Below are positions 475-64,000 of a DNA stretch of 64,000 bases, piece after piece (the stretch's first letter is position 1; each line of letters begins with the position of its first letter). Source of the stretch: Bilabrum cf. latius. Taxonomy: Eukaryota. The DNA is taken from contig OZ237747.1 of NCBI GenBank assembly GCA_965178125.1, forward strand, positions 434,001 to 498,000, written 5' to 3'. A model generated the notes under the pieces. That model had not been told where the DNA came from. It saw only the letters and a list, made by a program, of their open reading frames with translations, and did no database searches. The translations under genes were made by a program, and so were the position numbers.

Positions 475-1185
475 TTACGACGCAGCGCTCTCCAATCGGC
501 GAGTATGCACGCTCACTAGTGATATGCCCGCAGCAACGAGCGAGCATGCAGTAAGCAAGTGCCACCACGCGTGGAGCTGAGGGTTGAACCCAAGCGTTGG
601 GACGATGAGTCCGTGAACGATTACCTAGCACCCGAAGAAGTCCACGAGCCACAGGGCGAAGCCACCGACGGCGGTGCCAACAGCCGCTGCATGTGCACCC
701 TTGGACTCGCTGTCCCCATGCCTCTGCACCACCAGGTGAAGCCTGTGTGCAGCCAGCACGGCGCATGCAATCAGGTGGAGCTCGCACACAAGCTCCTTGA
801 CCAGCCAGACAAACGGTAAAATGAGCACCCAGTGCACGATCGACGTGGTCACTACAGACCATCCGTCTCGCGGTGGCTTGGATGCCATGAGCTCCCCCGC
901 CCAATGCAGCAGCACGATTACCGCCAACGTCTCAAAGCTCTCGTCGAGTTTCTGCTAGTAGTACCGTAGATCGGCATGAAACCACGCTGACGTTACTCCA
1001 GTGAGCGCTACAGCCCATGCAAATGCATGTTTTTGGGCCCTATACTCGTGCCGCATCCCGAGGCCTAAAATAGCCGCAGCGGCTGCCACATACAGCAAGC
1101 TTGAGGAAGTATTCCACGGCTCCACCCGCTACGTCTGCCCAATACCTGCTTCGCACCAGTCAATAGGCGATGCTTGGTCGAACAT
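475..1185 (-). CDS. Alkaline ceramidase family (CREST) membrane hydrolase, ~236 aa, 3 in-frame TAG=Gln, ends TAA
   Basis: Read-through translation gives MFDQASPIDWCE...EPWNTSSS...TSAWFHADLRYY(Q)QKLDE...WLVDFFGC...PQLHAWWHLL, matching the DWCE, SxxFH and HAWWH motifs of ACER-type ceramidases. Confidence 0.85.
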
Positions 1186-1345
1186 ATAAATTCAGAGCGC
1201 TGCTTTTGAAAAGTCTGATAGGGCGGCGCACGATCCGGCCAACTTTCAATTCGGAGCAGATGTGCAACTGCGACCATAGGCTCTATCGCAACCCGGGCAA
1301 AACAAACACGCACCTGGACATAGCTTTATAAAGTTTATAGTCTGT

Positions 1346-2533
1346 ATGTCGTTTGCACGGCTGGTCTTTTGCCGTCATGGCTAGAGCGAGAACAACGTTT
1401 TGCAAGATATTTCTCACGATCATTACAAGAAGCACAGATTAGCAGACCCAGACCTGACACCAACAGGATTCGAGTAGGCCAAGGCGGCCGGTGATGAAAT
1501 TAAGAGATTGATTGAAAAGACGAAGCCTGCTAGAGTACTGCTCTATGCTTCTCCGATGAAGAGGGCCCTCAGGACGGCGCAGCAACTTGCACTTTCGTCC
1601 AAGGTTCCGATTCGCATCGCCCCAAACGCCTTCGAGGCAGGTGGAATATTTAGAAAAGAGGTTGCCACCACTGCAGGCGCTGCAATGGCTGGATCCGCGC
1701 AACCGGCCTCGGCCTCGGTCTCGGGCCAAGCGCCACCGGCAGCCGCCGCGCCGCTCGAGCTCACCCTGGAGAAAGCGACTCATCTCGTGCCCGAGCTGGA
1801 CCGCGACCAGGCCGCGATGATTCTTTCAGAAAAAGGCTGGTACCACGACAAAACGTACTGCAAGGAGCCCTGCAGCAGCACTCTCAAGAGGGCTGCGAAA
1901 GTCGCACGGTGGGTGCGGTCTCTGCAGCCGATGCCGGCGCCAGAGAAAACGAGTGCATGCAAGCAGGAACGGGGCGGTGGGGCCGCTGTGTCTCCTTCTG
2001 CAGCTGCGGGTAGTCCCCCTGGAGATGGGGCAGGCCATGGGGTCGAGACGGCAGCAGCAGCCGGTGCCACCGGTGGATCCGAGACAGGGCACGACCTGAT
2101 CATCCTCGTCTCGCACGTCGTCTTCATGGATTCCATGCTCCGCTTCGTGCTGGGCGGGACCGATATGGGCTGCCGCAGCGTGCATGCGCCGCCTGCAGAA
2201 CAGCACGGTGACGGCTCCGAGCTCGGTGACGTACCGGGCACCAGCCTCGGAGATGACCCCTCCAGAGTCGAAGCGGCCGTTGGGGGGTCCGAGACAAGCG
2301 GTGAGGGCACAACCACGGATGGTACTGCCGCTTCTCCACTCGCAGTGCGGCCTCCGGACGCGGCCCGGCTTGCTTGGCACAACTGCGGCCTTACTGTTGT
2401 AGATCTGGACTCGACCGGAGAGGTGGCGCTGCAGCACGCCAACCGGACCAGCCACCTTGCGCGACGCGGTGCGGAGCTGGGCTTGGGAGAGGGTGCCTTG
2501 CTCACTGGATGCAACGAGGCGCTCGATTGGTGA
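1346..2533 (+). CDS. Histidine phosphatase / phosphoglycerate mutase family protein, ~395 aa
   Basis: MSFARLVFCRHG(TAG)SENN...DPDLTPTGFE(TAG)AKAAG...LYASPMKRALRTA...IILVSH...NCGLT...NRTSHL. The TAGs at 1382 and 1475 occupy the family Gln positions of RHGQS and LTxxGxxQA. Ends TGA. Confidence 0.9.
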
Positions 2534-2762
2534 GTTGGGCACAGAGTAGAAAGGGGATTCCTGGATCGAGGGACATGTCATGAACGTTGTTCAGGTCGGC
2601 AGTCCTACCCAGTTGCTGGAACTCGATGGATACCGGCGTACAAGAGCTTTCTGCTACCTGCACACGCCTGCTTTACACCGAACTGACCCGCGCTAGACTC
2701 GACAAACAAAATCGTGGACATCCGGATGTTGGGACGAGGGCTCTTCAAGCTCAACGACCGGC

Positions 2763-4982
2763 TCAGCCAGTACGAGGCCGCTTCTGCATCCCGCCCCCAG
2801 CACCAGGCGCACTCTCAGCCGCCCGCTTCTGCCCAACATCAGGTGCACCAGGCCCCTGCTGCTGCTGCTGCCTCACCTGATCGATCGAAGCGATCTGCCC
2901 ATCCCACACGCCACCGCTCGCGGCCGTGTTCATGGCCTTGGCGGAGGCAGCCTTGGCCTCCGCCTGCGCCTACTGCTCGGATCCCCCGAATATGTCCGTT
3001 CGCTGCCTACCCATGCGCATCAGCGAGTCTCCGATCATCTCGTCCGGCACCAGCGCGGATGTGCTCTTCTTCTCCTTCTCGCGCTTCTGCTGCTCCTGGT
3101 ACGTCCTCTGGTCGATCAATCCGATCCGCATGGCCTGCTGCACCCCTTGCACCGGCACTCTCTCCCCCGTCTCGGGGTTCACGAACACACCGGAGCCTGC
3201 CCCCACAGGTGCCCGGGCGGGCCCCGCCCTCCCCGGAGCGTAGTCTTCGATGACCCTTATCTCCTCGTCGTCCGCTGCACCGGCCATTTCTGCTGGACTG
3301 GGGCCCAAAGACTCTTCCTGCACGGCAGCTCTGGGCTGCCCTGCCGCACTACCTCGGGCAGAGGAGGCCGCCGTCCTCGCGCCCACAGACCGACTAGACG
3401 GTGCCTGTGCCCCGCCTGCATCCATGTCCATCGCGTCGTCGTCTTCGTCATCATCATCGTCATCGTCCTCATCCATGTCCATATCGACATCATCGCCACC
3501 GGCCCCTTTGCTGGCCCCCGCGTTCCCCTGCCCCGCCTTGGCATCCACAGAGTGCCCCGCCCTTGCCCGTTCCTCCCTGGCCTCTTCTTCTGCCTTTCTG
3601 CGCCGAGCAGCTGCGAGGGCACGGGCCATGGCGGCCTGGGACAGCATACCGGCGGCACCACCAGACGAGCCGCTACTTCCGCTGCCGCCGCCCCCCGACT
3701 CGTGCACCGCGGCGGGGGCCAACTCGCCATTCGCGCGCCGCAGCGGCTCCGGTGCAGGCAGGTTCTCGGGCCAGTCATCATCGTCCAGGGTCTGGACCAC
3801 AGCGAAATCCTGCCAGTCCACCTTCCAGCCAGCCTGCGCCACCTGCCTGCGCTCGTTCCGAGCAGCAGCCGCGCGTCTCCTGGCAGCCCCCCGCCGCGCT
3901 GCCCTCGCCAACACCCCCTAGCCCTCCCCTCCTCCTAGTCCTTGTCCTTGTCCGCCCGCCCCCAAGCCGGGGTCCGCAGCCCCAGCCCCAGCCCCAGCCC
4001 CAGCCCCAGCCCCAGCCCCAGCCCCAGCCCCAGCCCCAGCCCCAGCCCCAGCCCCAGCCCTAGCCCCAGCCCCAGCTTTCGCAGAGGGCGATTTTTCCGT
4101 GCTATCTGTGGCCCTACCGCGTCTTCTCCAAGGGTCCCTTGCGTCCGCCTCTAATCTAGCTCGGTCGGCAGGAGGCAGCCTCAGCACTCGGCTGTAGGCA
4201 GCGGCTGCATCGCGAAAGGTGGGGTGGTAGGGGGATGACTGCTGCAGGCTGACCCGGAGCAGCTCGGCCCGGCGCTGTCTGCGCTGCTGCTCTGCGAGAC
4301 TACCAGTCGAGTCTGCTGCTTCCCGGGCGGCTCTCGCGGCGGCTCGAGCCACGGCCTCCCTGCCACCGATGGCGGCAAGCTGGGCCGCCAGCAGGAGGGC
4401 CTGCCGCTGCATCGAGCTCTGCGGCATGGGAGCAGGGGGGTGTAGCTGCGGCGGGGGTGGCTGCACACGCGGTTGATCCTCTGACTTGCTTTCTTCTTCA
4501 GAGTGACGATTGGCCTGCTGGCTCTCGCTCTACTCGGCCCACAGCCTCTCGTCGCGCTCAGCAGACCTGGCGATTTGCCCGATAACATCAATCATGGCTG
4601 CCCGGACGGTGGGAAGTGCAGTGAGGCGATCACCACCTTTTGCGATCCCAGAGCGTTTGTCTCGAGCTTCGTCCGTATCATCAGCGGCACGGGGTTGCTG
4701 CCCATCGCCCTGTCGTGCCTCGCCTGTCTCAACCCCCTTGGACGGCTCGTTCTTCTCCTTCGCCTTACGAGCCAGCAAATCCACATAAAAACTGTGATAT
4801 ACATGCCCCTCATCCAAGAACGCAAACTTGGCCTGCTCTGCGGCGGATGATTTCGCTGTCTGCCTAATACGCTACTCGAATTGTTTGCCGTACTACGTCA
4901 CAAACTTGGCAGCCTTCTCTATCACGCCAAGAACCTTTGGCGGTGGCTTAATATTCTAAACTGGGGCATCGATTGAGTCCAT
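2763..4982 (-). CDS. SF3A1: Splicing factor 3A subunit 1 / Prp21-like (SURP domain), divergent, ~739 aa
   Basis: One frame when TAG is read through. N-terminal SURP (IKPPPKVLGVIEKAAKFVT(Q)YGKQFE(Q)RI...KFAFLDEGHVYHSFY), then VDWQDFAVVQTL, IRVIEDY, NPETGERVP, RQRTDIFG and VWDG motifs typical of SF3A1/Prp21. Ends TGA. Confidence 0.8.
3977..4076. repeat. (CAGCCC)n hexamer microsatellite, about 16 copies, encoding poly-Gly-Ala inside SF3A1
   Basis: Directly visible hexamer array with one variant unit (TAGCCC at 4061). Confidence 0.95.
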
Positions 4983-5132
4983 AGCGATGCAGCTAACTAC
5001 GAAACAGTGGTGATTGCACACTCTGTAATAATCTCGAATTGTTGCGTCCATATTGTTGCTGATGGCTCCGATCGGATATGGGAATGCCTCACAACAGATG
5101 ACGTGGCAACAGCATCATTGTAAGCAGTAAAG

Positions 5133-5753
5133 ATGCACAGGATCAGTCGGCTTCGTGGTGGCATCGCGAAATCAGTTGTCACGCTGACTGCTGCTGCGCT
5201 GAGCTGGAGCAGGTAGTTTGCGTGTGCCGCTTCACCATCGATATATGATTTCGAGGTGCCCGACGAAACAGGCTCGGTGGTCAGCCTGAGGGAGAAGTTC
5301 GGCGACAAGCGTGTTATACTCGTCACTAATGTAGCTAGCAAGTGCGGATTGACGCAATCCAATTACAAGGGGCTTCGAGAGCTGCAAGCTGAGTTCTCGG
5401 ATCGCTCTTTCAGTGTTGTGGGATTTCCATCCGATTAGTTCATGAACCAGGAGTTTCCGGAGAATGAGCAGATACAAGAGTTTGCCAATAAGATGGGTGC
5501 TAACTTTCCAGTGATGGGCAAGGTGGACGTCAACGGAAATAGCGCGGACCCACTGTTCAAATGGCTCAAGCAGCAGAATTGGGGAGGACAGCCTATGGAG
5601 GCCATTGCTTGGAATTTTGCAAAGTTTCTCGTAGTTGACGGCAAGGTCATAGAACGATATGCCCCGACAACGCTGCCATCTAGCATCAAGAAGGACATTG
5701 AGCGCGCACTGAGCTCGGTGGAAGCCGACGATGCACCTCGAAGCGATCTGTGA
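5133..5753 (+). CDS. Glutathione peroxidase (Cys-type) with an N-terminal targeting-like extension, ~206 aa
   Basis: SIYDFEV...NVASKCGLT...GFPSD(TAG 5436-5438)FMNQE...KVDVNG...PLFKWLK...WNFAKFLV. The TAG sits at the Gln of the FPxnQF motif. Ends TGA. Confidence 0.92.
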
Positions 5754-5823: not shown

Positions 5824-8800
5824 TCAGGTCTCCCAGGCGCGAATCTAGGCAGATGCCATGGGCACCACCACCGCAACCTGCGCGTCCGGCGCTGCCAGCA
5901 GCACATCCCCTCTCTCCAGAGCCTCGGCACCCTCCCCTCCATCCAGTGTGCCAGCAATTTCTGCACATGAGCGCATGAGCGCCGCCCCTTGCTCAGAGAA
6001 CGCCCTGAACTCGCTGGACTGCAGCCGGGCAGCTACCCGGAAGAAGTGAGCCATGGCGGCCAGCAGCCCATCCGCGCTTAGCTCGACTAGGAACTGCGAT
6101 TCCGATTCCTGCTCGATACCCGGTGCCTGACGACTCCGACCTGACCCCTTGAAATGCCAATGGTCTTCACCACCCCCGGCGCCCGACATCGGCCCGAAGG
6201 GGTCAGCCGCGGAGGAGGAGGCGACGGTTGTGCCACCGGGTGCGCCGGTGCCGTCGGCCCCCGCCTCGTCCTCATCTAGCTCATCCGTGCCCACCACGGC
6301 AGATTCCAGCCGCGCCATGCCAAGCTCGCAGCCTGCTTGTGCAGCCCAGGCAATGATCGAGCCCGGACGCTTGCCCTTGCCCTTGCCCTTGCCCTTGCCG
6401 CCGGTCTTGCTGCCCTTGGCCTTTTTCTTTTCCTACCCGCTTCCTTTCCCACCTTCGTCCTCCGGCTCATCCCTCGCTTCCTCGGAGCTCCCACCGGCCG
6501 CCAGTTCCGCAGCCTCCCACAGCGTCTCGCAACAGCCCTGGAAGCAGTCCTGCGCCTCGAACACCAGATCCATCGCTTCCGCCACGATGCCCGGATCGGG
6601 TCGGATGTACGGCACGCGGCGCCCTCTACCTGCTGCCCTCGTGGCGATGCACCGGTTGATCCTCCGCCGCAGCTGAAGAGCTGACGCTACGATTCTCAGC
6701 GGCATGCACACGGGCATCGGGCTGCACCACGCAGCGTGGTCCTCGTGCAGCCATCGGCGGGACGCTGCGCGCTTCGGCGCCGTGCCGTCCTCCTCGACTT
6801 TGTGCTCTGCTGCCATAAGCACCCATGGCTCTCGGGTAGGCAGCGGGCAGCAAACGTCAGCTCGGGTCTGGATGGCAGTGGCGATAATCAAGCCGAGGTG
6901 CGGGCAGCGCCCTGCGATCAAGTTCCACAGGAACGACGCCTGGGGCGAGCGGGGCTGCGTGACCACGCATTTGGCGCTCATGCGGATCCCGCCGCCAGAC
7001 TGCTGCATCGACAGGCTACCAAAGGACGCAAGCAGCGGCAGCGGTACCGATCGGATGGACTCGGCGCCCCTCGCCAAACCCACCTAGCAGGCCACCCCGG
7101 TGTCCCTGGCCCTGCTCACGCACGTGTTCGCAGGGAGCTGGATCGCTTTGTTGCGCGCCCTGCCGGTGTTCTTCCACATGAGCTGCCCTGCAGTGTAGGC
7201 GGCCTTGAGCGTGAACAGACTCTCCGATTGCACCACCTTAGTGGCATCTTTGGCTCTCTCGCGCAGCTTCGGATCCACCGCCGCCTCCCGCCAGCCACCG
7301 CTGTCAGCACCGCCTCCGCCTCGCCGGCGCCCGTGCGCTCTGCGCCCGCCGCTCGGCTCCACGGTGCGCGCCATGGGACCGATCGAAGACGCAGGCGGAC
7401 CCGCTCCGGCTCCGCCCCGCGCGGCCGACTTGCCTCCCGACTTGCCTGCCTCGAGGCTAGGGAACAGCCCGGTCGTCTGCAAGTTCGGCTCGTCCGCTAC
7501 ATCCTCCGCGCCAGCCTCCTTCTCAAAGCTCGCACCCTTCAGGCTCTGCCTGCTCCGCCTCCTAAACTCTTGGTACGTGTCGTGCGAAACCCCACTCAGC
7601 ATGTCGACTGCCCGCAGGAACGCCGCCGTGGCTCGCAACACAGTCTCGTCGACGCTGTAGTCCGCAGACAGATTGCTGCGGGACGCGGGGCTCTCTCGGC
7701 TCGAGCCCCACGCCTTTTCGCCAGACGGGACGTACTCATTTCGCCTGCGCCTGGACGACTGGAAGGGCGCGCGGCCGTTCGACACGGCCTCCGCGAACGC
7801 GCACTCCATGGATGCAATGAGTCCGTACAGATAAACCTTGTCTCTTCTGAAGCCAGCCACAAGGCTCAAAAAGATAGAGAGAGCGTCGCAAATGCCGGTC
7901 GTCGGGTTCGGACTGTACTCTTCCTGTGGGAACACACCGACCATGGACCCGTCGGTGGTGGCTGCCAGGACCGCGGGGCTGACCGAAGCAGACCGAAACC
8001 GCGCCGTACCTTCCGTTAGCATCGGCGAGATTGCTTCACATTCAGCTTTGGTTAACGGCTCGTGCAGCGCCACCGGCTCGAAGACAATAGCGACAGCATA
8101 CGACTCGCGGTCCGCGCGCCTACCTTGCTTGCGATTTCTACCCTTCCCGGTCGCAGCGCCGCGGCTGCTTGCTTGCGTTGCAGGGATATACCTGCGCAAC
8201 TGTGAGCTCGCCACGCCTCTGCGAATGGCATCAGCGGCGAGAGACTCGGCCTTTGCTTCCGGCCCATCGCCCATCTTGAATGGAACGACGAGCACGGCAA
8301 GGACTGCGCCGCGGAGCTGCCGCGGTACGATGCTCATGAGCGCTCGAGGAGCGGACGCGAGGCCAACGGGCACGCCTTTCAGCACGCAGCACGTCTTTGG
8401 TGAGGCCGAATCTCGCCACCATCGAAGGAATGGTGCGTCACCGTCGCATCGTTCCGTGGCCGATGGCACCTCAACTCGTGAGGACACCCACAGCGCTGGG
8501 GTGCACGCCCTGGCTGGCGGTACGTACGAGGTGCTGCTCTCTGGCGGCGCTTCGACTCCGCGTACAACCGGCGGGTCGATGCGGTCACATGCATCGATCG
8601 AGGCAAGAACAGCCCTTCCAATGGCCTCCCGTCCGATCACGGCAGGAAGCAAGTCGGCGACGTGCTTTGGAAATCCGGAGGACGAAGCCAGCATTTGCTG
8701 CGATACGCCCATCGTAGCGTCCATAATGACTCGCAAGGTGTCTATGTCGTTCGACAAGAGAGACTCGTAGGCGTCTGCCTTGCCTCCATGCTTGCTCAGA

Positions 8801-11800
8801 GCGTCAATGGCCTCTCGAAGCCGACGGGAGCCGCCACTGGCCCTTGGATCGGGGCGCCGCCGGTCCGCTGCTCCTCCCCGCCTGTCTCGACCACGACCAC
8901 GACCACGACCACGGCCACGGCCACGACCTCCTCCTCTTGAAACATCGCCCGCCTCGAGCTGCTCTAGGACTCGGCGGGAGCACTCTACCACGAACGAATG
9001 CATGTGCTGGAGCCTTCGATGCATGAGGCCCCGGGCCGAGGCCCAGCCTGACCTCTCCTTGGGATGCACCTTCCTCCAGGCGAGGTACGCACCCCTGGCC
9101 ACAAATGCGTCCGACATGGAGCCCGCGTCGAGTGCGACGCGAGAGCCGCTCACACGCAGGAAGAGCTCGCAGAATTCGGACGGAGACGAGCTGCGCTTCA
9201 CGTTGGGGATCACAAAGACATCGCTCACGGTTGCCGATGCAGCCAGCAGCACGGCTTCCACCGGATTGCCTAGTGCAGTCGCAAGGCTCACAAACACACC
9301 AAGCCTGGCGTCTCCCGGGAACGTCGATAGCATCTGCCCCAGGGGGGTAACTCTCGGCTCGGCATCCTCCGAAGGCGCCTCCAGCAGACCCATGCTGAGC
9401 AGCCTGCCCTCGGCCTGCGGGACAGAGCCAGGGGCGGGCGGCTGCGGCGCGTCCGACAGGAGCTTATCTCCTTTCCCTTGCAGTCCCATAGCGCGGCACC
9501 GCAGCACGGTGCTATCCAGCGGCAGCCTCAGCATCTCCGGCTGGTCAAAGTCGGGCATGACGAGATCGAAGAAGCGCTGCGGGTAGAGACGGAAGCACTT
9601 CCCTGGGCCCAGCCGCCCTGCCCTACCCGACCGCTGCGTGGCGCTCGCCTTACTGACAAAGCAAGGCTTGAGAACCGCGGCGCCTAGTTTAGCGTCGTAG
9701 CGCATCTCCTTGTGGCAACCTAGGTCGATCACGGTGGTGACGTCGGGGATGGTGATGCTAGACTCGGCGATGTTGGTGGCAAACACGATCCTGCGGATTG
9801 AGGCCCTGTCCAGCGGCGCAAGGTCTTCCTCCTCAACGTGGTGGCCCGCGCTATCCCCGACAGAGGAGGCTCGCACGGGCGGGGAAGGTGGCAAGTCGGC
9901 TGCCTCCTCGTCTTCGCTTGCCCTGTACCCGTCCGACTCCGACTCCGACTCCGACTCGTCGCCCTTGACCACCCTAGCGTTCGGTGTGCTTGGCTTGCCG
10001 TCTTGGGTAAACGCCCGGTCCTGCTCCTCTTGCGGCAGCAGGGAGTGCATTGGAATGACGTCCAGGGTGCGCTGCAAGGCCAACGAGACCACGCTTTCGT
10101 CCTCAGCCAGCTCACAGCACGCCATGATGTCGGCAAGGCCGCTCAAGAACACCAGCACCGTCTCCCCTGGCCTGCACACCTCCGCCGCTAAGTGCACGGC
10201 GAGCTTCAGCCTGCCCTGTTCCTCCGAGGGCGACAGGTTCACCTCATCCAGGCCCTCCCTGCCGGACTCGGCCGAGTCGGCCAGCTTGTGCAGCCTCTGG
10301 GCGGCCTTGAGGGCGTTTTTCGAGAAGAAATGGGGGATCGAGATCTTCTACTCGGGGTCCACCTCGAACGGATCCTGCCCTCTTTCAATCCGGGCGATTC
10401 CCTCCGCCAGAGACCTAGGCCTCTGCACGCTGCCGCTCTCGATGATCTCGTCCAAGAACGTGATCGACACGGGGAACCGCTTCGCGCCGACGTGAATCGG
10501 GCTTATCTTCTGCTCGATGCTTCCTGATTCTCCGTCACCAGCCTTCTGGCCTGCATCAGTTTCCATGCCACGAGAGTCCAACTCCCAGTTCCCCACCGCA
10601 CCAGGCTGCAGCCCCTCGGCGAAGTAGCGCGCGAACAGTTGTGCGTCCAGCGTGGCACTCATCACGATGAGCTTGGGAGCGCGGCGACCTGCGGCTGCCG
10701 TGGCCCTCCGCAGCAGCATGCAGAGGAGGTCCGTGTCGAGCGAGCGCTCGTGCACCTCGTCCAGCGCGATGTGGCTCCACTTAACCGCCGGGGAAGCCTT
10801 GGAAAAAATGCTCCCACTGTCACCGTCCCCAGAGGCAGCGGCTGTGCTACCCGCAGTCACAACGGAGCCGTCCAGGGGTGCGAGCAAATCAGTGCCAGTG
10901 TCGTCCGCCTGCGGCAAGTTTGCAACGAGCCACTGTAGCAGCCAGCCTGTGGTCACGAAAGTCAACCTCGTGTCCTTCTGCACTAGCCTCTCGCCTCCCA
11001 GCCGATAGCCCACCAGCCCGCCTACGGCGCCCGTGTTCATTTCAAATGCAACACGCTGCGACAGCGTCCGCGCAGCTACCCGTCTCGGCTGGGTGATGCA
11101 AACCCTGTAGTCTGCAGCTCCATGGAGCTCCTGCGCAAGGAACTGAGGCACCTGACTACTCTTGCCGCTTCCCGTGTCTGCTGTCAGCACGACCACCTGG
11201 TCACGATCCAGCCGCTGCTTAATCTTCTGCTCGTGATCATGGATGGGCAGCCTAGGACCGCGGCTTGGAGGCAGTCCGCTCTATCTGGGGGCTTTCGCAG
11301 TGCTGGGCGGAGCTTGTATTGCAGCTGGCGCCATCGAGGATGGATCCGGTCGGGTTGCGGATGCTTCGGAGGATGACTTGCCACCAGGGTCCGCGGCAGT
11401 CGCCTGCCTCTTCGTCTCATTCCACGACAGAATTGAACCGCCATTCGAATCCTTTAGTTCGGCTGCACGCCCCTATGCCTTCTCTTTGGGTTCATCCCTT
11501 CCTGACCCGTCGCCTACAGGTGCGCCGCCCACACTAGCGAGGTCTGGCACAGACTAAGCGCTCCCTGTTGTGTCGGGGGCACTGTGCAACGGCTGCACAG
11601 GATCGAAAGCGGGAGCTCTCGAAGATCCTGATGGGTCAGGGTCGAGCTCATAAACCGAGTGCAGAAGCCACTGCTTGACCGCCGCAAAGACCTCGCCAGC
11701 GTGCGACTCATCCAGCAATCGCCGCAGCTCCGGCGAGACTGCACGGCTGCTCTCCGTCGAGTCGCCCCAGAGCCGGTCAGGTGTTGCGCATTCCAGCGCT

Positions 11801-17935: not shown

Positions 17936-18046
17936 GGAGCCAATTCTGCCGCGCGCCGGCTCGATCAAATTGTTTAGTGGGGTTTTGACAAGTGAAACTG
18001 ATTTAAATCGCTTCCATGCCGTTTCGTCTGGCTGCTACATCCCTCC

Positions 18047-40364: not shown

Positions 40365-40525
40365 CAGGACCTCCCAATGCTAGCAATAGACCGGCACTAG
40401 GCAGGCAATATCGTCGCACTGCTAGCCAATGCATCGGATACATCGAAGAAGCGCTACCCCGAGGCCTGCATGGATGGGCCGATCCATCGCCTGCCTGCTG
40501 AGGGGCCTCCTCCCAGAGGGGACAA

Positions 40526-44316: not shown

Positions 44317-44415
44317 TGTGCGATCATGTGTTGATGCGAGGCGAGGAGAAGCAGCGATAGCCAGATAATGGGAAAATATTCTGGGGCAACTCAATCAAGA
44401 ACCGCAGCAAGCTTG

Positions 44416-50371: not shown

Positions 50372-50591
50372 TATTCACAAACAAAGTATATCAGCAAAAT
50401 GTAAGCATCATACAAGCAGTATTATCTACTAAGTCATGGTGGTATGGCTGACTTGTCGAAAGCTTTGAATCGGATGGGCGCTGCGCACCATTGCGGAACA
50501 ATATTTTTTGTTGCGTCATGTTCCAGATTAGTAAACCAGAGAGCCAGACCTCCGTCAAGTGACCATTCTGATCGCTGTGGAGCACACCGCC

Positions 50592-53487: not shown

Positions 53488-53639
53488 TGCGTAGTGAAGT
53501 ATTAAGAAGTGGATTGGTTCCTCCACTGGAATTCGTTGCGGAACCTTCAAGTTACGGAGCAATCGTGCGCGGCGCCGAAGGCTCAGCTCTGCAACGCACG
53601 TTGGTCCCTGACGCAACTGTTCGGCAAGATATTGTTGCT

Positions 53640-56435
53640 ATGTCAAGCCTCGTCAAGCATATATTTGGCATCGAAGGAGGCTCTTTGGCACTCGCGCGAG
53701 CGGTTAGCAGGCAAATGAAAGCGAGCATGTCGCCACATCACACCACTCCGCGACATCAGACTGGCAGTGACGTCGCCCCATTTTGCCCCCGCACATCGCA
53801 GAAATCGCACTTACACAAGAAAGCTTCAACCTAGCATGGACTTGATGGAACTTCTGACACAGGATTGTTGTCGAGAACCGGCGATCTGGACAGTGCTAGG
53901 ACGTAGTACGACCACGGCACCACACGGCTGCCAGTGGTCGAGGTGGATAGGACCGAAACCGAATACTCGATGGAATGGAAATTGTCCGTGGAGCCTTACG
54001 TAAAGTACTGGATGCTTTTCGGGGCGCTGGCTTTCGTTGTTGCAGCGGCTGTCACTGTCGGCTTACACGTAGCTGGTATTGCGGAGGGTAACGCCGCCAT
54101 CGTCCAGAGTGGATTTCCTTTCGCAGTACCGGCTGTCGCATTCGGGATCCTACTTCTGCTAGACTTGCTTAGTCTTTCCGTTCCTACGCTTGCGCGCCCG
54201 CCCCACCTCGTTATTCTCGCGTCCACTCTTGTGAGATTCGGGGCTGCAACGAGCTATCTGATCCAAGCCTTGGACCTGGCACCAAACCTCGTCATGCGCG
54301 AAGGAAGCTGGCTGGTACCTATTCGATACATTGACTGGCTCGTGACCACGCCAGCGCTCATAACCCTGCTTGGCTCACTGGTCGAGGCGCCCGCCTCGGT
54401 ACTAGGCACCAGCGTGGCAGCTGACATTATCGCCCTCGTGCTAGGCATGCTGGCGAGGCCATCTCCCCCAGCGGCTCGGTACGTTCTGATCGCCTTGGCT
54501 TGCTTGTGTTTCTCTGTTTCTATGTGGGGCTGTGCCCTGATGCTGCAGGACGCTCACGCCCGCGCGCTCAACGAGGCCAGTCGCCGCCGCGTGTGGGCCG
54601 TGAGCATCGTGGTGGGGCTGCTGCTGTGGGTGTACCCCTTGATTTTTATCCTGGAGGGCGAGCAGGCCATCGACGCATTTGAAAGAGATGTGTTCTTTTC
54701 TGTGGCTGATATCGGCGTGAAGATCGGTGTGACGAGTGTGCTCTCCCGCATGAGCATCCTCCGGTTCAGCGAGGAGCTGGATATGTCTGCGGCAGTGCTG
54801 CAGCACATTGCACGAGAGAAGGCGAGGCTGCTGGACGCGGTTCGCAACAGGGTGCAGCCATCTCTGGAGAGCCAGCTGGCCAGCATCGAGGAGCTCAGCA
54901 AGGTCATGAAGAAGTCCGACGCTGGGGACGAGCAAATTGGAATGCGCCCTGAAAAGCAGATCAGCGAGCCATCAAAGCGCCAAGCTGCCAGCAGCAAGCT
55001 GTTTGGGGAACGCAATCAGGCAGCATCGAGGACCAGAAGTATACGCTCTGTCAGCAGCGCGATGGCTGGCAGTTGCGCGGGCAGCGTATCCTCCTTCCTG
55101 GACCCCATTGAGGCCATCGACAACGTGTACAGCCTGGCGCTCAGCATGTCCAAAGCCATGAACGATGTGGCCATGTACGAGCAGGCGACCAGCCGCACAC
55201 TCAAAGCAAGGATCGCGCCTCTCAACCCCGTGGCCCTCTACAGGCCCATCCGAGCCAGGGTGCGGGGCCTGGCTCTGCGCAAGAACATCAAGACGGAGTT
55301 CCTGTGGCTGGACAGCGACGGCTTCGTGGACGATGTGGGCGCGCTGGTGGACATGCGTGCTCTGCAGTTTGTGCTGCTGACCACGGTGCACTCGGCGGTG
55401 CAGTCGGCGGGTCGCAACGGCAGCGTGCTGGTGCTGTGCGAGGTGCTGCCGCACCACAAGCGGTCAGCCTACCGGGGCTCGGCGTGGCACGGGAGCAGCG
55501 AGGACACCAGCGGGGGAACACAGGGGCATCACGCGTACTTCCTGCGCGTGCTGGTGTGCGACAGCGGGGCCAGGAGCGTGGACCTGGATCCTGCCGTGCG
55601 GGCCCGCAAGTCGGAGCAGCAGACGCAGCTGATGGTGGGTCAGAAGAACCGCGCGATGGCGGACAGCGCGGCGATGTTCCGCAGCCAGGCGCGCCAGGAG
55701 GCGGACCAGGAGCGGCGGACGTTCGCCATGTACTCGCGCGGCGTGAGTGCTGAGCTGTCTCCGGCGGAGGCGATCGCCGCAGTGCACCCGGAGAGGCCGG
55801 TGGACGGGCGCATGACTGCGCGGGAGCTGATGGCGCTGGGACAGGCGCAGGACTCAATGGCAGACAGGGGGCGCGCGGCGAGTGCGATGGAGCTGGGCCT
55901 GTGTCGGTTCTTGGTGGAGAGGATGCGGGGGGCGGTGAGGCTGCTGCCCGGCGTTGACATCGACACCGTGTCGGAGGCTAGGAAAGCCAGCTTGCAGCAT
56001 GGTGCCTCCGCTTCCAAGATGTCCACTGGTGCAGCTGTAGGACCTGATTCGAGTGGGCAAGATGCTGCCTCCGTGGGAGCCGTGAGCAATAGAGACGAAG
56101 CAAATTCGAGCTCCGTGTAGGTCAAAGAATCAGGCAGGATGAAGGTGCTAGAGGATGAAAGAGATTCGCACAGGATGCCAACTGAAACGTTAGACGAAAG
56201 AAGCAGCATGATCCTGGGCATTACTTCCGCTGATGGAATGGACAGAGTTGCTGAAGACAGGTTGCAGTATGTACTGGAGATGGTCGTCCCGCTGCATTCA
56301 GTGGCAGGTCTACAGCATATGTCAGGAAATAGAGGGCATCTTGAGGCCTTTTGGGGCAGCGGCGGTGCATCTCAAGTTTTGCAACACCTTGCTAGATCGC
56401 CTGGGGCTCATGTGGCTGTTGGTGACCTTTCGTGA
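53640..56435 (+). CDS. Microbial (type-1) rhodopsin, 8 TM, fused to a degenerate histidine-kinase (HisKA/HATPase-like) module, copy 1, ~930 aa; start uncertain (53640/53715/53727)
   Basis: Helix C RYIDWLVTTP, helix F YP, and helix G DIGVK (Lys codon 54720). These are followed by KARLLDAVRNRVQPSL, DMRALQFVLLTTVHSAVQS, LRVLVCDSG, ELGLCRFLVERMRGAV and YVLEMVVPL. TAGs at 53832, 53904 and 56118. Ends TGA. Confidence 0.85.
55091..55949. repeat. Near-identical inverted copy of 62391-63250 (a second block ~54499-54850 matches ~63541-63890)
   Basis: Reverse-complement comparison by eye shows long stretches of identity between the two rhodopsin paralogs, interrupted by diverged linkers. Confidence 0.9.
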
Positions 56436-56560
56436 ACCGGGTTCCGGTTTATAGAGAGTATTTGCTCGTGCTCGCTCGCAAGTCTTCATTCGTGAGTGAT
56501 AACTGCCACGACTGATCATAAAGAGGAAGCAAATTTCCATATTTGGTATAACAACATAAA

Positions 56561-58846
56561 ATGCAACAAGCCATGGTGCAGCTGAAGATTTCGCAATCAA
56601 CTTGGACCGCACTAGCTCGAATATCATTTTGTGGCGAGCTCGCACCTAGTATCAACGTACAGACAGCGGCAGTGGACGCTGTGAATAGGCTTAAACCGCA
56701 CATATGCTGCGCTGTAATAGACTAGTACGCTAGACGCGGTATTATCGTTGCCGTCGCCGGAGAGTCTAGACAATCGACAAACGACTTGTTGGAGCACGCC
56801 TTGCAAAGTATTCGGGATACTATCTACGAGATGTAGTCGCAAGGCATGCATTCTGTTGGTGAATATGTTACATTCGAGTCTATTCAGTGTTTAGGGGGTC
56901 TTGCTTTGGTGCATCCAGTGGTGCCTCGGACGTCGAAGAGAGTGTCCGCAAGCCCCACGCCTCTATGGCGGTTCTGCCAATCGCACCCAAATCTAGCTGC
57001 ATAGATATTGAACGCTTGGATTTCAAACGTGTCTCGTTTGCAGTCATGCACCGGAATTTTGTCCGGAGCTCATGCAGTGCTCGGTCCCGACTGCCTGGTC
57101 TGCAGTGCAGACGGGCTTGACGCCCACTGTGTTATGCGGACATCATTGATCGTCATACCAGGCATTCTTTAGCTGGCTATTCAGACGGAAAAATGGCGGA
57201 TCCGCATCGCTAAGACAGATGCGTCTGACTTTTGCTCGCGTGCCAGTTGTACGCATGGATCCAGCAAGCAGGACGGAGCATCGCCACCGCTTGCATCGAC
57301 TTGCAGCGTGCTGGCAGCGCGCAGAGGTGCGTACTGCGCAAGCAGCGAGGATGCTCGTCCAGCGGATACTGCGCTAGTAGATTCATATGTGTGGCCGTGC
57401 CTGATCCCCGCTACAGTGCGGGGAATATCCAGCGGTGGTGCAGGATCCTCGGAGCCGACGGTGGCTGTCGATCTGCAACTCGGAAGCACCGGCAGCAGAC
57501 TATACACTGACATTTTGGGTGATTTCTAGTCTCAACGGTGTAACATCCCAATATCACAGTTGATTCTTTCCTCCGCACCCCTCCGGAGCAAGAGCGCAGA
57601 AGCAGAGGCTGTCTGCATCGAGCAGCTGCTCGCTGCCTGTTCTCGGCTGCCGTTCGTAGAGAAGGTGGATCTGATACCCAGCGAGGGTCTGCCAGCCTCA
57701 ACCAAAGCATCCATACCTGCACAATCAAGCGAGGCGAGGTTTGCAAAGCTGCCCGTGGTCGACTTGCCAGCAGAGCCAGTCACCGTCCCTGCCTCCAAGG
57801 CAGCCACCGCGAGGAATATGTGGCCGGTGCCCACGAACACGCTGGGAGTGGAGCTGCTGGAGCAGCTGTCGCCTGCGATCTGGTTGAAGCTGGGACTACC
57901 GGTTGATCCTGTTGAGGGCACGGCGGTGGGAGCTTCGGCAAGCAGTGCAGATTCTGCGGCCTCGGGAACAGGGGCGGAGAAGTCGGGAGCCGCGCATCCT
58001 TTTGAGCACATTCAGGCAGCTGCGCGCCTACTTCTGTCCTCTGTCTACCGCTAGGCGGGAGCTGCTGGAGCCGTGGAGCCCGACGACCCCCTGGCTGGCG
58101 TAGCGGACGCGGAGCTCGAGAGGCTTTAGAGAGAAGCAGAGAGAAGGCGGCGCCAGCACGAGCGCAAGAAGTTTGCAGAGCGGTTCAAGGCCGCCAAGGC
58201 GAGCTTTGTTGCGGGTAAGCAGTACACAAATCACCGCAAAGAAGCTGAGCAGGAGGCCAAGAAGGAGGGCATTCATGTGCACGCGCAAGCCAGCGCAAGG
58301 CCCGGACCTGCCACGGCCACCGAGCACGTCGCCGCGCCTGAAGAGGCGGAGGAATGGGCTCTCGTGCTGGGCAAGCCCAGCAACTTGGGCGGCAAACGAA
58401 AACGGTAGCACGGTGTTCCAAAGTCTCATAAAGCCGGGTCAGGAAAATCGACCGCGAGTCAGTCCAAGCCCCAGAAGCAGGTGCACAGTGATGCTGAAGC
58501 AGTCGCAAAAATGCCAGCATCAAAGCACCGCAGGGTTTCCGCAGCATCCGGATCTAGCAAGGGTGCTGCATCAAGAGCAGGAGCGGGCGCCGCATCTAAG
58601 GGCGCTGGCACTACTCTCACAGCACTCAGAGGCAGAGAAGCATTGAAGGCACCTCCGGTCCGCGTAGCACCCATGCAGGGGGATGCAGGTCGGTCGATGA
58701 AGGTGCTTGGGCAAGCAGGCAAGTCCGCAGGAGCACCTGCTAGGGGGCAACCCGGCAGCAATTTGGCTGGACTGGATAGTGGCAGTGACTCCAGCCTCTC
58801 CAGTGACAGTGACGACTCGCTCGACTTCTCTGATGACGAGGACTGA
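56561..58846 (+). CDS. Hypothetical protein, ~761 aa, with an acidic C-terminus
   Basis: Single frame from ATG 56561 with 8 TAG and no TAA/TGA until 58844. It fills the intergenic space but has no recognised motif. Confidence 0.6.
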
Positions 58847-58956
58847 GTCCAAGCAGGGGTGACGCGAGCGGCCTTGGTAGGGGCGTGTAAGGGTGAAATT
58901 CTGTAACATGATTCCGATTGCTAGCAAGAACAAAGAACGATTCCAATGCAGTCAGC

Positions 58957-61556
58957 TCAGATTCTCACAACGGAAGCCCTCACCCGCTTGCTTGCATCAT
59001 GAGACACAGCGCGCTTCTTCTTGCCTCCGTCAGTCGCAGCAGCAGCAACAGCAGCAGTCGGATCCGACTGCGGATGTACCTCCAGCCGACAGTAGAAACC
59101 AGCCGACCGAGAGCGGCACAGCTGCCCGTGGCTCACCACCACAGTGCCCTCGATGTCCTTCACGAAAGGAGCGAGCCTGGACGGCAGCAGCAGCACGTCC
59201 GGCTTCAGCGGCATGGCAACGTGGGCCTGCTAGGCCAGGTCCAGAGGGAGGCCCTCGGAGGGAGGGAACACTGGGTAGAAAGACCTCTGGTCCAGGAGCT
59301 GGGCGGCGAGTTGCGGGATGCGCTGCGGGCGCGGGGCTCCTGGCGCGTGCTTGAACGTGGACTGCGAGCCGAGGTCACGCAGCACGTCCTCTGCAACGGT
59401 AGAGAAGACCATGCCACCCACCGAGAAGGTGCATGGGTTCGGCATCAGCGTCACTCTCTGCATGTAAGGGATTCAACAAGGAGAGTAGGAGCAAGGTGTG
59501 GGTGGAGCAGGCTCACAAGCACGAGACGCTTTGGTGCGCAGCAGGACATTCGGTGCCCGCGGGCCAACCGCTCTTCCGAGGCACGGGGAGCTCCTGGGGC
59601 AAAGAAAACATGCAGCGTACAATACAAAACAAAACAAAACGAAAGCATGCGTACTGGTCTCACCTGTCTTGGCACCTCTCCGATGCCCTCGAGCATGGAG
59701 GAGTCGAACTGTGGCTGGGGGAAGACCGGCTCGCCGAGCACCCCGGTCGTGGCCGGAACGATCACAACCCTGCACTTGCTCAGAGCAGGCGACATGAGCG
59801 CCTCCTCCACTGCAGGCAGCACCCTCAGTTCCCACAGGTCCTAAAAGGTGATGCTGAACACCACTCCGTCGTCGTTCGGCAGCCGGATGGTGCCTCGCCT
59901 GCACGCGGGGTGGGAATCGTCCAGAAAGGGCCCCTGCAGAACGAGCACGTCGGGGGGGCACTCCGCCTGCTGAGCCTCCATGAGCAGGTCGAGCAGCGGC
60001 TGGAACGCAAGATCGTCGTGAGTGCAGAAGGGTCCGGACGCCGCCCACAGGCGCATCGGTCCAGAGCCAGTTGTCTCGGCGTGCTCAGCCCTGGCAGACA
60101 GCACTGGGATGGGCGTCTTGGGTGTCGGCAGCGGGGCAGCGTCCATGATCTCCTTGGCAACCACACAGTTGCCGTCTGAGTTGATGCCCTTCGCCACGAT
60201 GACCTGCCCGGGGAACAACGAAAATGCGGGCACCTCGTCGACCCTCAGCCGCGCCCTTGAGCCCTCACTTGACCCGATGGACCCCTCCAGCAGCAGCTGC
60301 GTGGGTTTCAGCTTCCCATCGGACTCGCCCATGACCCTCCCGCACACCATCACCTCGGTCTGAGAAGCATCAGATACGCCGGAGAGGCCCTCCTCTTGCA
60401 TGCCCTTGGCCTTGAGGATGGCACGCCCGATCACCTCGCACCGAGCGTCCAATGCTTCGGCACGGCGATCCGGAGTGGTAAACATGTACTTGAAGGGGCC
60501 GGGCAGGGTACCCGCCCCGAACCTCGAGTGCTTGGCCAGCACGGGCCTGGCTTCCAGCGCCCCCGTGCCGTCGGTGCCAACGGCCCACGCCCCCCTAGCA
60601 GCCAAGGTGCCGCTCGCCACGGGGATGAAAGGCTCCGTGGACTCGTCCCCGAACTCGCCTGCCGCATCGTACGTGGTCACAACATCGCCAGCGTTCTTTC
60701 GCGTCTTGTAGGCGGAGCCGGGGGTGGCCCTCCCACTGCCACTCGAGGAGGACGAGGCACCTGGTCCTGTAGCGGGCGTGCTCGCAGTGGATACTGGGCG
60801 CGAGGCGGGGGTGCGCGGGGCGGTCGATGCCCCGCCCTTGGCCTGCCCGCCCATGCTAGATGAGCGGCCGAGCGTCCTTGGTCCAGCGCCAGAATCCATA
60901 GGCGCTTGCCCGAACGAGTCCCTCCTCGACTGGCGCGCCTCTCTTCTGGCAGACCCGCCAGGTGCACGGCCCGTATGGGAAGGAGTTCCGTACCCGCTGG
61001 ATTTCCCTGGCTTATCCTGCGAAACAGTACTTACACGAATAACAAATCAAATGGCAAATGTGAATCAAACGATCTGCGAAATTCGAGATAATCTTGATTG
61101 CAGCTAGCTCGACCGAATGCCTAGGGTGCTCACCTCGCCAAGTCCCAGCATGGTCTCAAACGATGTATCACCAACGTCACCGTCATCCATCATGACAGCA
61201 CTTCCTACTCCTAGGTCACCGGCAGCCTTACGGCCTCTTGAGGCTACCATGCGAGCAGCCATCTGCTTGACTACTCCGACATCCACCACGGCAGACTTGC
61301 CACCGCTCAGTGCAGCTTCGCAGAGATCGGCAATATCTTCAGCATTCATTCCAGCATCAGACGCCATATGGAGACCTGCGGGGATGGGTCAAGCAGCGGG
61401 GCGGCGGCAAGACTGCGGTAAGAATTCAAATCTCGCAATTGAACCGGATAATTGCGTGCACACTGTCATCATACATTGGGACTGTGCTTCATCGGATGCA
61501 AATTTAAGACTTCTAGCAGCTAGTTCTCGCTGTACTAGCGAGGATAAGCTTGACAT
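58957..61556 (-). CDS. POLA2: DNA polymerase alpha subunit B (Pol12), ~725 aa; introns 61376-61474, 61017-61133 and 59458-59663
   Basis: FKYMF, VCGRV, LLLEGS, FSLFPGQVIVAKGIN, AASGPF, PDVLVLQGPFLD, VFPQP, MPNPC, QRSFYPVFPP, PDVLLLPS. Three GT-AG introns give a continuous frame. Ends TGA. Confidence 0.9.
59458..59663 (-). other. Spliceosomal intron (GTGAGA...TGCAG, 206 nt) in POLA2
   Basis: Removal joins VPRQ to RVTLMPNPC across a frame change. Confidence 0.85.
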
Positions 61557-61679
61557 TCTGCCGGCAACTGCCTAGAAGATTGAAGCGACCAAAATGAGCC
61601 AGGCTTGCGGAACTGAACGTGTGCGCGGCGCCATAATAAACCATCCATAGCTTTGACTTACAATGCGTTGGGCACTTGA

Positions 61680-64000
61680 TCATGAAGCAGAGTTGCCAAT
61701 CGCAAAAACTCCGCCGGGCGACCTCCCGAGCTGAGGCAGGATCTAAGAGGCGCCGTGCTCGCCCAAAAATGCCCTCAGCTTGGTCTCGTCCCTGGCAAGC
61801 TGCACGATACCAGACACTGTGTGGAGCGGCAGGACCATCTCCAGCACGTATTTGAGCTCCTCTGGCACCACGTGCTCCTCGCCATCGTCTTGGCCCCCAG
61901 TACCAGCGGTCCCAGGCCCTGCTACACCCCTGCCTCCACCAGCTCGCCTCGCGCCCCCACGGACTTGCTTTTTGCTGTTGCCGCGCTCATTTTCTAGCAA
62001 CTTGATCTTCGTTTCAGCAGCACCAGCAGCACCGGAACCGCCGCTAGGACCACTCCCACTGGGACTCTGCCGGCTCTGCGACGCGATCTTCACCATGGCC
62101 TCGCTCGTCGCCTTCGATGCAGGCGTGCCGTGATCGTCCGAGCCGCTTTCCTCGTCGCCCTCCCCTGGCTTTTCTCTCTCCAGACGCATGGCGGGCGGAG
62201 GAGCTCCAGCCTGCACGGCACTCCTCTGCTCAGACAGCTCGAAATCAGTCGTGTTCGTAGACCCCACGGAGTCACCCATCTCGCTGCCGTGGACACTGTC
62301 CCGCATCGAGTTTTTCCACTACCCAGGCAAGTTCCAGCCACCCTGTCTACCTGCCTCGCGGGCCGTGTCCACCACCTCTGATTCCACATCCGGCAGCAGC
62401 CTCACCGCCCCCCGCATCCTCTCCACCAAGAACCGACACAGGCCCAGCTCCATCGCACTCGCCGCGCGCCCCCTGTCTGCCACTGAGTCCTGCGCCTGTC
62501 CCAGCGCCATCAGCTCCCGCACTGTCATGCGCCCGTCCACTGGCCTCTCCGGGTGCACTGCGGCGATCACCTCCGCCGGAGACAGCTCAGCACTCACGCC
62601 GCGCGAGTACATGGCGAACGTCCGCCGCTCCTGGTCCGCCTCTTGGCGCGCCTGGCTGCGGAACATCGCCGCGCTGTCCGCCATCGCGCGGTTCTTCTAA
62701 TCCACCATCAGCTGCGTCTGCTGTTCCGACTTGCGGGCCCGCACGGCAGGATCCAGGTCCACGCTCTTGGCCCCGCTGTCGCACACCAGCACGCGCAGGA
62801 AGTACCCGTGATGCCCCTGTGTTCCCCCGCTGGCGTCCTCGCTGCTCCCGTGCCACGCCGAGCCCCGGTAGGCTGACCGCTTGTGGTGCGGCAGCACCTC
62901 GCACAGCACCAGCACGCTGCCGTTGCGACCCGCCGACTGCACCGCCGAGTGCACCGTGGTCAGCAGCACAAACTGAAGAGCACGCATGTCCACCAGCGCG
63001 CCCACATCGTCCACGAAGCCGTCGCTGTCCAGCCACAGGAACTCCGTCTTGATGTTCTTGCGCAGAGCCAGGCCCCGCACCCTGGCTCGGATGGGCCTGT
63101 AGAGGGCGACGGGGTTGAGAGGCGCGATCCTTGCTTTGAGGGTGCGGCTGGTCGCCTGCTCGTACATGGCCACATCGTTCATGGCTTTGGACATGCCGAG
63201 CGCCAGGCTGTACACGTTGTCGATGGCCTCAATGGGGTCCAGGAAGGAGGTCGCCATCACGGTGCTGCTGCTGTCCCTAGCTCGCTCAGAAGGTTTAGTG
63301 AAACTCCCAGTGCTGATCAGCACGGTTGCAGCCGAGCCCTCGACATTCTTCTCTCCTAGCAGCTTGCTAGGGGGTGCCCTGCGCCGCATACCAGCACCCT
63401 GGTCTGGCCTTGATCCGCCCTATTGCCCCACTGTCATGTAGGAAGCAGAAGCGACAGCTACATCCTGGGACTTCTGCGCCACTAGCACACGCCTCAGCTC
63501 CTCGATGCCGGACAGCTGCTGCCCCAAGGAAGGACCGACCCGATTGCGCACCGCACCCAGCAGCCTCGTCTTCTCTCGCGCCATGTGCTGCAGCACTGCC
63601 GCAGACATATCCAGCTCCTCGCTGAACCGGAGGATGCTCATGCGGGAGAGCACACTCGTCACACCGATCTTCACGCCGATGTCGGCCACAGAGAAGAACA
63701 CATCTCGTTCAAATGCGTCGATCGCCTGCTCCGCTTCCAGGATAAAAATCAAGGGATACACGCACAGCAGCAGCCCCACCACGATGCTCACGGCCCACAC
63801 GCGGCGGCGACTGGCCTCGTTGAGCGCGCGGGCGTGGGCGTCCTGCAACATCAGGGCACAGCCCCACATCGAAACAGAGAAACACAAGCATGAAAGCACG
63901 AACAGAATCCATCGAGCCGCTGGGGGAGATGGCCTCGCCAGGATTCCGAGGATGATCATGACGACATCGGCGATGACGGTCGTGCGCAGGACCTGCACCG
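61680..64000 (-). CDS. Rhodopsin-degenerate histidine kinase fusion, copy 2 (5' end beyond the window)
   Basis: Paralog of 53640-56435 covering helices D-G (DIGVK) and the kinase-like module. TAGs at 63420, 62697, 62319 and 61743. TGA at 61680. Confidence 0.85.

Follow-up and report, generated by a model that had tools for sequence, protein, structure and literature searches.

Evidence for UAG as an ordinary glutamine codon, with UGA and UAA kept as stops, in a 64-kb window of a GC-rich nuclear genome

Nuclear genetic codes in which UAG and UAA differ in meaning are rare. About half a dozen such lineages are described, four of which have reassigned UAG alone to glutamine (Gln), i.e. Iotanema spirale, Protocruzia tuzeti, and two phyllopharyngean ciliate lineages (PMC11687900). 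The same source lists UAG as a Leu codon in a rhizarian and as a Ser codon in Scotinosphaera, and reports that both UAA and UAG (UAR) are read as Gln in many ciliates, ulvophytes, Hexamita, Streblomastix, and Amoeboaphelidium. Here we describe a 64-kb stretch of contig OZ237747.1 (positions 434,001 to 498,000; "the window" denotes this whole stretch, and coordinates count from its first base), in which every long gene is interrupted by TAG. The window very probably represents a GC-rich, gene-dense, and intron-poor nuclear genome in which UAG is an ordinary Gln codon and translation terminates at UGA, the main stop, and at UAA. Judged from sequence, the decoding of UAG as Gln is apparent at the DNA, RNA, and comparative levels. 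We take this code to be NCBI translation table 15, the table named 'Blepharisma'.

The GC content of the window is 61% overall and 58-63% throughout, and an earlier interpretation made from the letters alone (hereafter, the sequence-only reading) was right to call it GC-rich. Open reading frames (ORFs) of at least 200 codons were collected greedily and without overlap, with TAG read as sense. This set comprises 19 long ORFs spanning 19,700 codons from stop to stop, approximately 92% of the window, or 19,142 codons when counted from the first ATG. In-frame TAGs are present in all 19, with totals of 156 (stop to stop) and 149 (from the first ATG), close to the previous count of about 150; four of the 149 fall in orf40228, which is doubtful as a gene. 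Sixteen ORFs terminate at TGA and three at TAA. Pfam families were recognized in 14 of the 19, including SF3A1, POLA2, kinesin, glutathione peroxidase (GPx), and cathepsin C. Two of these, the essential genes SF3A1 and POLA2, had been singled out earlier as containing TAG, and both do.

Under the standard code, the longest ORF in the window has 1087 codons. Reading through TAG alone extends the longest ORFs to 3077, 2614, 2109, 1915, and 1828 codons; reading through TAA alone leaves the maximum unchanged at 1087 codons, and reading through TGA alone gives a maximum of 1000 codons. Within the 19 ORFs, TAG occurs in frame 149 times and TAA and TGA never; the remaining two frames contain 165 and 159 TAGs, 58 and 62 TAAs, and 303 and 436 TGAs. 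TAG is about equally common in and out of frame, and TAA and TGA are wholly excluded in frame. At the off-frame density of TAA plus TGA (0.0224 per codon), the probability of an open run of 3077 codons is ~1e-30. Over the 19,142 codons, TAG, CAG, and CAA are used 7.8, 32, and 11 times per 1000 codons, respectively; TAG thus accounts for 149 of the 976 Gln-type codons, and the CAA:CAG ratio is 212:615.

The sequence-only reading had assigned Gln to TAG on four lines of evidence. All four hold, with the seven positions cited (1382, 1475, 5436, 33903, 62697, 61743, and 28615) being in-frame TAGs in the contexts described, and they are strengthened by independent data from homologs, close relatives and an ortholog, and spliced contigs. 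In the tandem array at 33307-34520 (period 117 nt, 10.4 copies), the repeat anchor has 11 matches, of which one reads TAG (33903, AAHE-TAG-AV) and the 10 sister units all read CAG, as had been noted. The two microbial rhodopsin paralogs of the window can be aligned over 678 positions (498 identical), which include four TAG columns; the TAGs of paralog 2 at 63420, 62697, and 61743 face CAA, CAG, and CAA in paralog 1, the last two codons being those named before. The TAG said to lie in a poly-Gln run, at 28615, reads RGQ-TAG-EQQQQ. The TAGs at 1382, 1475, and 5436 had been placed at conserved Gln positions, and the corresponding columns of homologs do hold Q. For the histidine phosphatase (His_Phos_1), an exhaustive HMMER search gave 165 aligned stretches from 150 listed representatives. 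Among the homologs listed, position 44 (1475, TGFE-TAG-A) is Q in 142, E in 4, A in 1, and N in 1 (n = 148), and position 13 (1382, RHG-TAG-S) is E in 82 and Q in 60, with nothing else. Because position 13 is E or Q and position 44 is nearly always Q in these homologs, only Gln suits both. At GPx position 102, Q is found in all three of the PDB alignments shown, out of 41 matches.

The same pattern is found in a relative. Contig L001 from a JGI metagenome (4835 nt, GC 0.54) has ceramidase and His-phosphatase genes paired head-to-head as in the window, with amino acid identities of 52-53% (121/233 and 199/375 aligned residues, respectively). Its in-frame TAGs number four in the His phosphatase, two in the ceramidase model, and six in a GH31-like ORF. 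Each of these three ORFs terminates at TGA, and the TAG positions differ from those of the window. Going by these sequences, the UAG change is common to a clade that includes the L001 organism and is not confined to one genome. A further relative, with 85% amino acid identity in POLA2 (fragment P0176), is found on 10-12 kb contigs. The public standard-code proteins of such relatives are short pieces (P0001, 139 aa; P0008, 125 aa; P0009, 159 aa; and P0176, 255 aa), and P0008 and P0009 are two fragments of one His-phosphatase gene; the fragmentation is explained if gene callers stop at TAG. The named distant homologs, at 31-41% identity, are a chlorarachniophyte protein in the His-phosphatase cluster and EukProt GSMAST32 (POLA2, 31%), and both are too distant for taxonomic placement.

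Residues opposite TAG in these relatives again point to Gln. The ceramidase TAG at aa 77 faces Q in the 94%-identical P0001 and in the 51%-identical P0002, and CAG in L001. The TAG at POLA2 position 353 faces Q in P0176, and in the His-phosphatase fragment P0009 (67% identical) positions 13 and 44 are both occupied by Q. In the two genes in common with L001, five window TAGs face CAG, CAA, CAG, TCT, and AAA, the L001 His-phosphatase ortholog having CAG and CAA opposite the TAGs at 1382 and 1475. Taken over the repeat, the paralogs, and L001, CAG or CAA stands opposite TAG in 7 of 10 close codon comparisons. At 15 TAG sites, the residue of the nearest homolog is Q in nine cases and S, K, P, V, R, or A in one case each, and the BLOSUM62 sums over these 15 residues are 43 for Q, 15 for E, 12 for K, and at most 9 for all others. 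CAA, which is two positions away from TAG, was found opposite TAG three times, and the correspondence therefore points to synonymous exchange among Gln codons rather than to one shared mutation.

RNA-level evidence comes from assembled contigs of public sequencing runs, eleven of which include part of 50770-58846; none is on record as RNA. Logan contigs of four runs (X1, X5, X6, and X7) were compared with 44001-64000. In X1, a contig is collinear with the window across 47942-54808. In contigs of X5, X6, and X7, which belong to two studies, 97-206 nt are skipped at six places, and after small shifts allowed by the comparison, all six skipped segments are GT..AG on the gene strand, as follows.

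50120-50216, minus strand, intron (GT..AG gap in RNA-derived contigs)
50679-50775, plus strand, intron (GT..AG gap in RNA-derived contigs)
53703-53801, plus strand, intron of 99 nt (GT..AG gap in RNA-derived contigs)
59458-59663, minus strand, intron (GT..AG gap in RNA-derived contigs)
61017-61133, minus strand, intron of 117 nt (GT..AG gap in RNA-derived contigs)
61376-61474, minus strand, intron of 99 nt (GT..AG gap in RNA-derived contigs)

Because the skipped segments are spliceosomal GT..AG introns, the X5-X7 contigs derive from processed RNA. These contigs cover 44001-64000 in part; all eight TAGs of orf56561, for example, lie outside. The listed pieces include 32 of the 43 in-frame TAGs of this region, and no letter differs at any of the 32; eight letter differences were reported, none at a TAG. 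For 11 of the 43, the covering record itself contains a splice joint, and these include all seven of cathepsin C (in two or three runs). A C in place of the DNA T, as U-to-C editing would produce, was found at none of the 32 covered TAGs. The sequence-only reading had called for RNA data to exclude editing or splicing at TAGs, and in the spliced contigs TAG is kept. It had also described the genome as intron-poor, a justified description, but introns are not absent from the window: six were found in the 20 kb examined, and one more was inferred in a GTPase gene. Three of the six introns (99, 99, and 117 nt) have lengths divisible by three, and the long ORF of rhodopsin 1 stays open through its intron; ORF-based gene models here therefore silently include introns. 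Spliced in silico, cathepsin C has 932 aa with seven TAGs and gains a signal-peptide-like N-terminus, POLA2 has 751 aa with three TAGs and a conserved C-terminal block, and rhodopsin 1 has 949 aa.

Two further features of the run contigs were observed. In all four runs, CAG/CAA-rich stretches of the poly-Gln type (47255-47282, 59031-59064, and 62014-62033) collect chimeric joints and loose ends that originate at many other loci, and several of the loose-end consensus strings have TAG embedded in CAG/CAA runs, which fits TAG as Gln, although these strings were read without frame. In addition, many contigs of the four runs are only 95-99% like the window (for example, 25/75 in X1 and 21/52 in X5), and the ceramidase fragment P0001 is 94% identical; these observations suggest that the material also contains another haplotype, a paralog, or a very closely related strain.

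Several observations weigh against UAG being an ordinary Gln codon of this genome. The fourth TAG column of the rhodopsin alignment, in a divergent stretch, faces CCT (P), and in the close comparisons as a whole S, K, and P face TAG at less conserved sites. Remote single homologs also have other residues opposite TAG, i.e. W, M, and E in ACER3, V, R, and A in human SF3A1, and E in human POLA2. These non-Gln residues occur where conservation is poor or where the comparison is with one remote homolog, and the remote alignments are uninformative on the identity of the amino acid. TAG positions lean mildly toward 5' ends (Kolmogorov-Smirnov (KS) p 0.03), with 18, 22, 14, 21, 12, 13, 11, 13, 14, and 10 TAGs in successive deciles of gene length, and three TAGs are found among the final seven codons of an ORF (orf44419, aa 1890/1890; helicase, aa 3059/3065; and ubiquitin-like coiled-coil protein, aa 2101/2104), with ~1 expected (Poisson ~0.09). 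ARAGORN reported no tRNA genes in the window, L001, or L002, and eRF1 is not among the genes of the 64-kb window. The kinds of the sequencing runs were guessed (X5 was flagged as probably DNA), and the RNA origin of the contigs rests on their GT..AG joints only. Finally, the evidence covers 64 kb of the genome: the genome-wide reassignment proposed by the sequence-only reading stands for the window and for the contig of one relative, and its extension to the whole genome is an extrapolation.

The skew and the near-terminal TAGs would be expected if UAG had a dual meaning, mostly Gln and a genuine stop at some gene ends as in context-dependent codes of the Condylostoma type, the three near-terminal TAGs being situated 0-6 codons before the TGA of their own ORF. 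We consider this improbable. No ORF needs TAG to end, as 19/19 reach TGA or TAA; the ceramidase of the window (TAA) and its L001 ortholog (TGA) stop within a few residues of each other; and three near-terminal TAGs are not a significant excess. TAG and CAG do not differ in the base that follows them (chi-square p 0.20), and a special context for read-through is thus not apparent. Nothing requires termination at UAG, although it may occasionally occur there. The opposite extension, that UAA and UAG both specify Gln (NCBI table 6) and that TAA is rare through GC richness, draws on the fact that TAA is the rarest stop trinucleotide of the window (211 on one strand and 179 on the other). With TAA and TAG as synonyms, however, ~50 in-frame TAAs would be predicted from the CAA:CAG ratio; none is present in 19,142 codons, against 58 and 62 in the other frames, and the reassignment is therefore of UAG only and not of UAR. 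Moreover, the three ORFs that end at TAA are followed by non-coding-looking sequence with a further stop within 14-64 codons. A UAR code is accordingly very unlikely here. UGA is likewise not a sense codon in these genes, as in-frame TGA is absent and 16 of the 19 ORFs end with it.

It is equally hard to believe that the standard code applies at the ribosome and that the TAGs are removed from the transcripts, although TAG and CAG are one T/C change apart, introns exist, and three of the six have lengths divisible by three. The spliced contigs keep TAG at every covered site, which argues against editing and hidden introns as removers of TAG and largely refutes this idea. The six introns contain at most two TAG trinucleotides each, no counted in-frame TAG of rhodopsin 1 (Rho1), cathepsin C (CatC), or the POLA2 main exon lies inside an intron, and the 149 sites would need ~149 extra introns within conserved domains. 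Decayed pseudogenes or sequencing and assembly errors under the standard code have nothing in their favour beyond the in-frame stops themselves, and we regard this explanation, too, as having almost no chance of being correct. It is refuted by the presence in frame of one stop codon of three (149 vs 0 and 0); in addition, the single-copy core genes SF3A1 and POLA2 are affected, the same letters recur in independent runs, and the relative L001 has the same pattern at different sites.

With UAG read as Gln, the decoder would be a tRNA-Gln(CUA) that probably arose from tRNA-Gln(CUG), and eRF1 would have changed so that it no longer acts efficiently on UAG. Among anticodons, only CUA pairs with UAG without also pairing with UAA; tRNA-Gln(CUA) genes, which differ from tRNA-Gln(CUG) by a single mutation, occur in Tetrahymena, Condylostoma, and Spironucleus, and recognition of UAG is proposed to be weakened by eRF1 changes, for example T32G in Iotanema (PMC5304391). 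An Rfam scan of the window gave no matches at the gathering score. Because TGA already dominates termination here, a route in which UAG was lost as a stop in a GC-rich genome with TGA-dominated termination and was then captured is plausible, though speculative. Whether this is an independent, unreported origin of UAG-only-to-Gln in a GC-rich clade that is neither ciliate nor fornicate and uses TGA almost exclusively as its stop is a proposal to which we give a little less than an even chance. If true, it would be a natural case of stop-codon capture under GC pressure, most stop-to-Gln cases having been described from AT-rich genomes.

The genes of the window, with TAG read as sense, are as follows.

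475-1191, minus strand, alkaline ceramidase with 3 TAGs, ending at TAA (Pfam PF05875, E 2.3e-29)
1346-2533, plus strand, histidine phosphatase (His_Phos_1) with TAGs at 1382 and 1475, ending at TGA (Pfam PF00300)
2763-5051, minus strand, SF3A1/PRP21-like splicing factor with 6 TAGs (Pfam Surp and PRP21_like_P; human SF3A1 match in PDB)
5133-5753, plus strand, glutathione peroxidase with TAG 5436 in FPSD-TAG-F (Pfam GSHPx, E 1.3e-30)
5824-15021, minus strand, 3065-aa helicase-domain protein with 14 TAGs, open only with TAG as sense (Pfam Helicase_C)
15246-16187, minus strand, NAGPA-like phosphodiester glycosidase with 2 adjacent TAGs, ending at TAA (Pfam PF09992)
16343-18040, minus strand, M14 carboxypeptidase with 4 TAGs, ending at TAA (Pfam PF00246)
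18869-23635, plus strand, 1588-aa low-complexity ORF with 18 TAGs (no Pfam family)
23788-31599, minus strand, 2603-aa kinesin with a long coiled coil and 21 TAGs, including 28615 within the Gln run (Pfam Kinesin, E 1.2e-82)
31887-38201, minus strand, 2104-aa ubiquitin-like and coiled-coil protein with 19 TAGs, holding the tandem array (Pfam)
38229-39467, minus strand, STI1/HOP DP-domain protein with 3 TAGs (Pfam PF17830)
39480-40364, plus strand, probable small Ras/Rab-like GTPase split by a short presumed intron, with ORF pieces at 39480-39770 and 39774-40364 (motifs by eye)
41986-44316, plus strand, LRR-containing protein with 8 TAGs (Pfam, below the curated cut-off)
44416-50088, minus strand, 1890-aa ORF (orf44419) with 20 TAGs and intron 50120-50216 in its 5' part (no Pfam family)
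50776-53487, plus strand, cathepsin C (dipeptidyl peptidase I) with 7 TAGs and intron 50679-50775 (Pfam Peptidase_C1 and CathepsinC_exc)
53487-56435, plus strand, microbial rhodopsin paralog 1 with 3 TAGs, intron 53703-53801, and a long C-terminal extension (Pfam Bac_rhodopsin; PDB rhodopsin matches)
56561-58846, plus strand, 761-aa ORF (orf56561) with 8 TAGs (no Pfam family)
59664-61015, minus strand, main exon of POLA2 (DNA polymerase alpha subunit B), with a TAG at 59841-59843 and flanked by introns 59458-59663, 61017-61133, and 61376-61474 (Pfam DPOA2_OB and DNA_pol_E_B)
61680-64000, minus strand, rhodopsin paralog 2 with 4 TAGs, continuing past the window end (Pfam)

In L001, the ceramidase gene adjoins a GH31-like glycosidase gene (2678-4834, minus strand), the window counterpart of which would precede base 1. 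In the 3065-aa helicase-domain protein, Pfam recognizes the Helicase_C segment only, leaving ~2900 aa without a family. No relative of the window kinesin was found among the metagenome contigs searched, and the Atlas search returned generic eukaryote clusters only. The translations of the GTPase gene contain GxxxxGKS and downstream GTPase-like motifs, identified by eye without a family search, and the gene was missed by the long-ORF scan; orf40228, with its four TAGs, overlaps this gene and is probably spurious. The 1.6 kb that follow (40365-41950) contain low-complexity overlapping ORFs only.

The two rhodopsin paralogs are in inverted orientation, and each has a C-terminal extension of ~550 aa, Pfam covering the rhodopsin domain only. 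In a protein-language-model atlas, the extension is nearest to HisKA/HATPase_c clusters (score 0.94), and on this model-based similarity the paralogs may be histidine-kinase-type enzyme rhodopsins. A Lys of the window rhodopsin aligns with the Lys in the DIASKVG motif of a solved rhodopsin, which is presumably the retinal-binding Lys. A contig joint seen in X1 and X5, linking 54391 to 63999 on opposite strands, probably reflects the two rhodopsin copies. The cathepsin C stop codon (TGA) shares one base with the first ATG in the rhodopsin-1 ORF (53485-53489), and the RNA-derived record 11 of X5 spans both genes; either the intergenic spacer is zero or the real rhodopsin start is elsewhere.

In the literature searched, in which subscription journals and supplements were thinly covered, we found no description of a GC-rich, non-ciliate eukaryote with UAG alone read as Gln. 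A further carrier of such a code, of opposite base composition and with TGA-dominated termination, would provide an independent data point on stop-codon reassignment; it would bear on the choice between codon capture and an ambiguous intermediate, and on the apparent coupling of UAA and UAG. In practical terms, annotation under the standard code severely fragments the genes of this organism and of its relatives, and gene calls, completeness estimates of metagenome-assembled genomes (MAGs), and phylogenomic matrices for the clade need table 15.

Among the described systems, the fornicate Iotanema spirale is, like the organism of the window, a non-ciliate in which UAG alone is read as Gln and UAA is kept as a stop (PMC5304391, PMC11687900), and its predicted decoder is tRNA-Gln(CUA) (PMC5304391). 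In Iotanema, UAA is the dominant stop (PMC5304391), whereas the ORFs of the window end at TGA in 16/19 cases and at TAA in 3/19; the window also differs in its GC content of 61% and its light-sensing rhodopsin genes. The UAG-only ciliates, i.e. Protocruzia tuzeti and the phyllopharyngeans, share the codon table of the window, with TAG as Gln and TAA and TGA as stops (PMC11687900). The window differs from them in comprising 64 kb with 19 genes, 61% GC, and GT..AG introns of ~100 nt. This is a genome style that we take to be unlike that of a ciliate macronuclear genome.

Amoeboaphelidium protococcarum, ulvophytes, Hexamita, and Streblomastix are also stop-to-Gln systems outside the ciliates. In Amoeboaphelidium and the other UAR lineages, UAA and UAG both specify Gln (PMC6299283, PMC5304391), whereas TAA is not a sense codon in the window, and Amoeboaphelidium genomes have a GC content of ~40% (PMC10608142, Table 1), compared with 61% here. 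TAG is likewise read as Gln, via a suppressor tRNA, in crAss-like and other code-15 phages (PMC9523058). Those phages recode their late genes (PMC9523058), whereas the genes of the window are cellular nuclear genes with spliceosomal introns. UAG-only reassignment to Gln is an already known code, and its carrier here is unlike the known ones.

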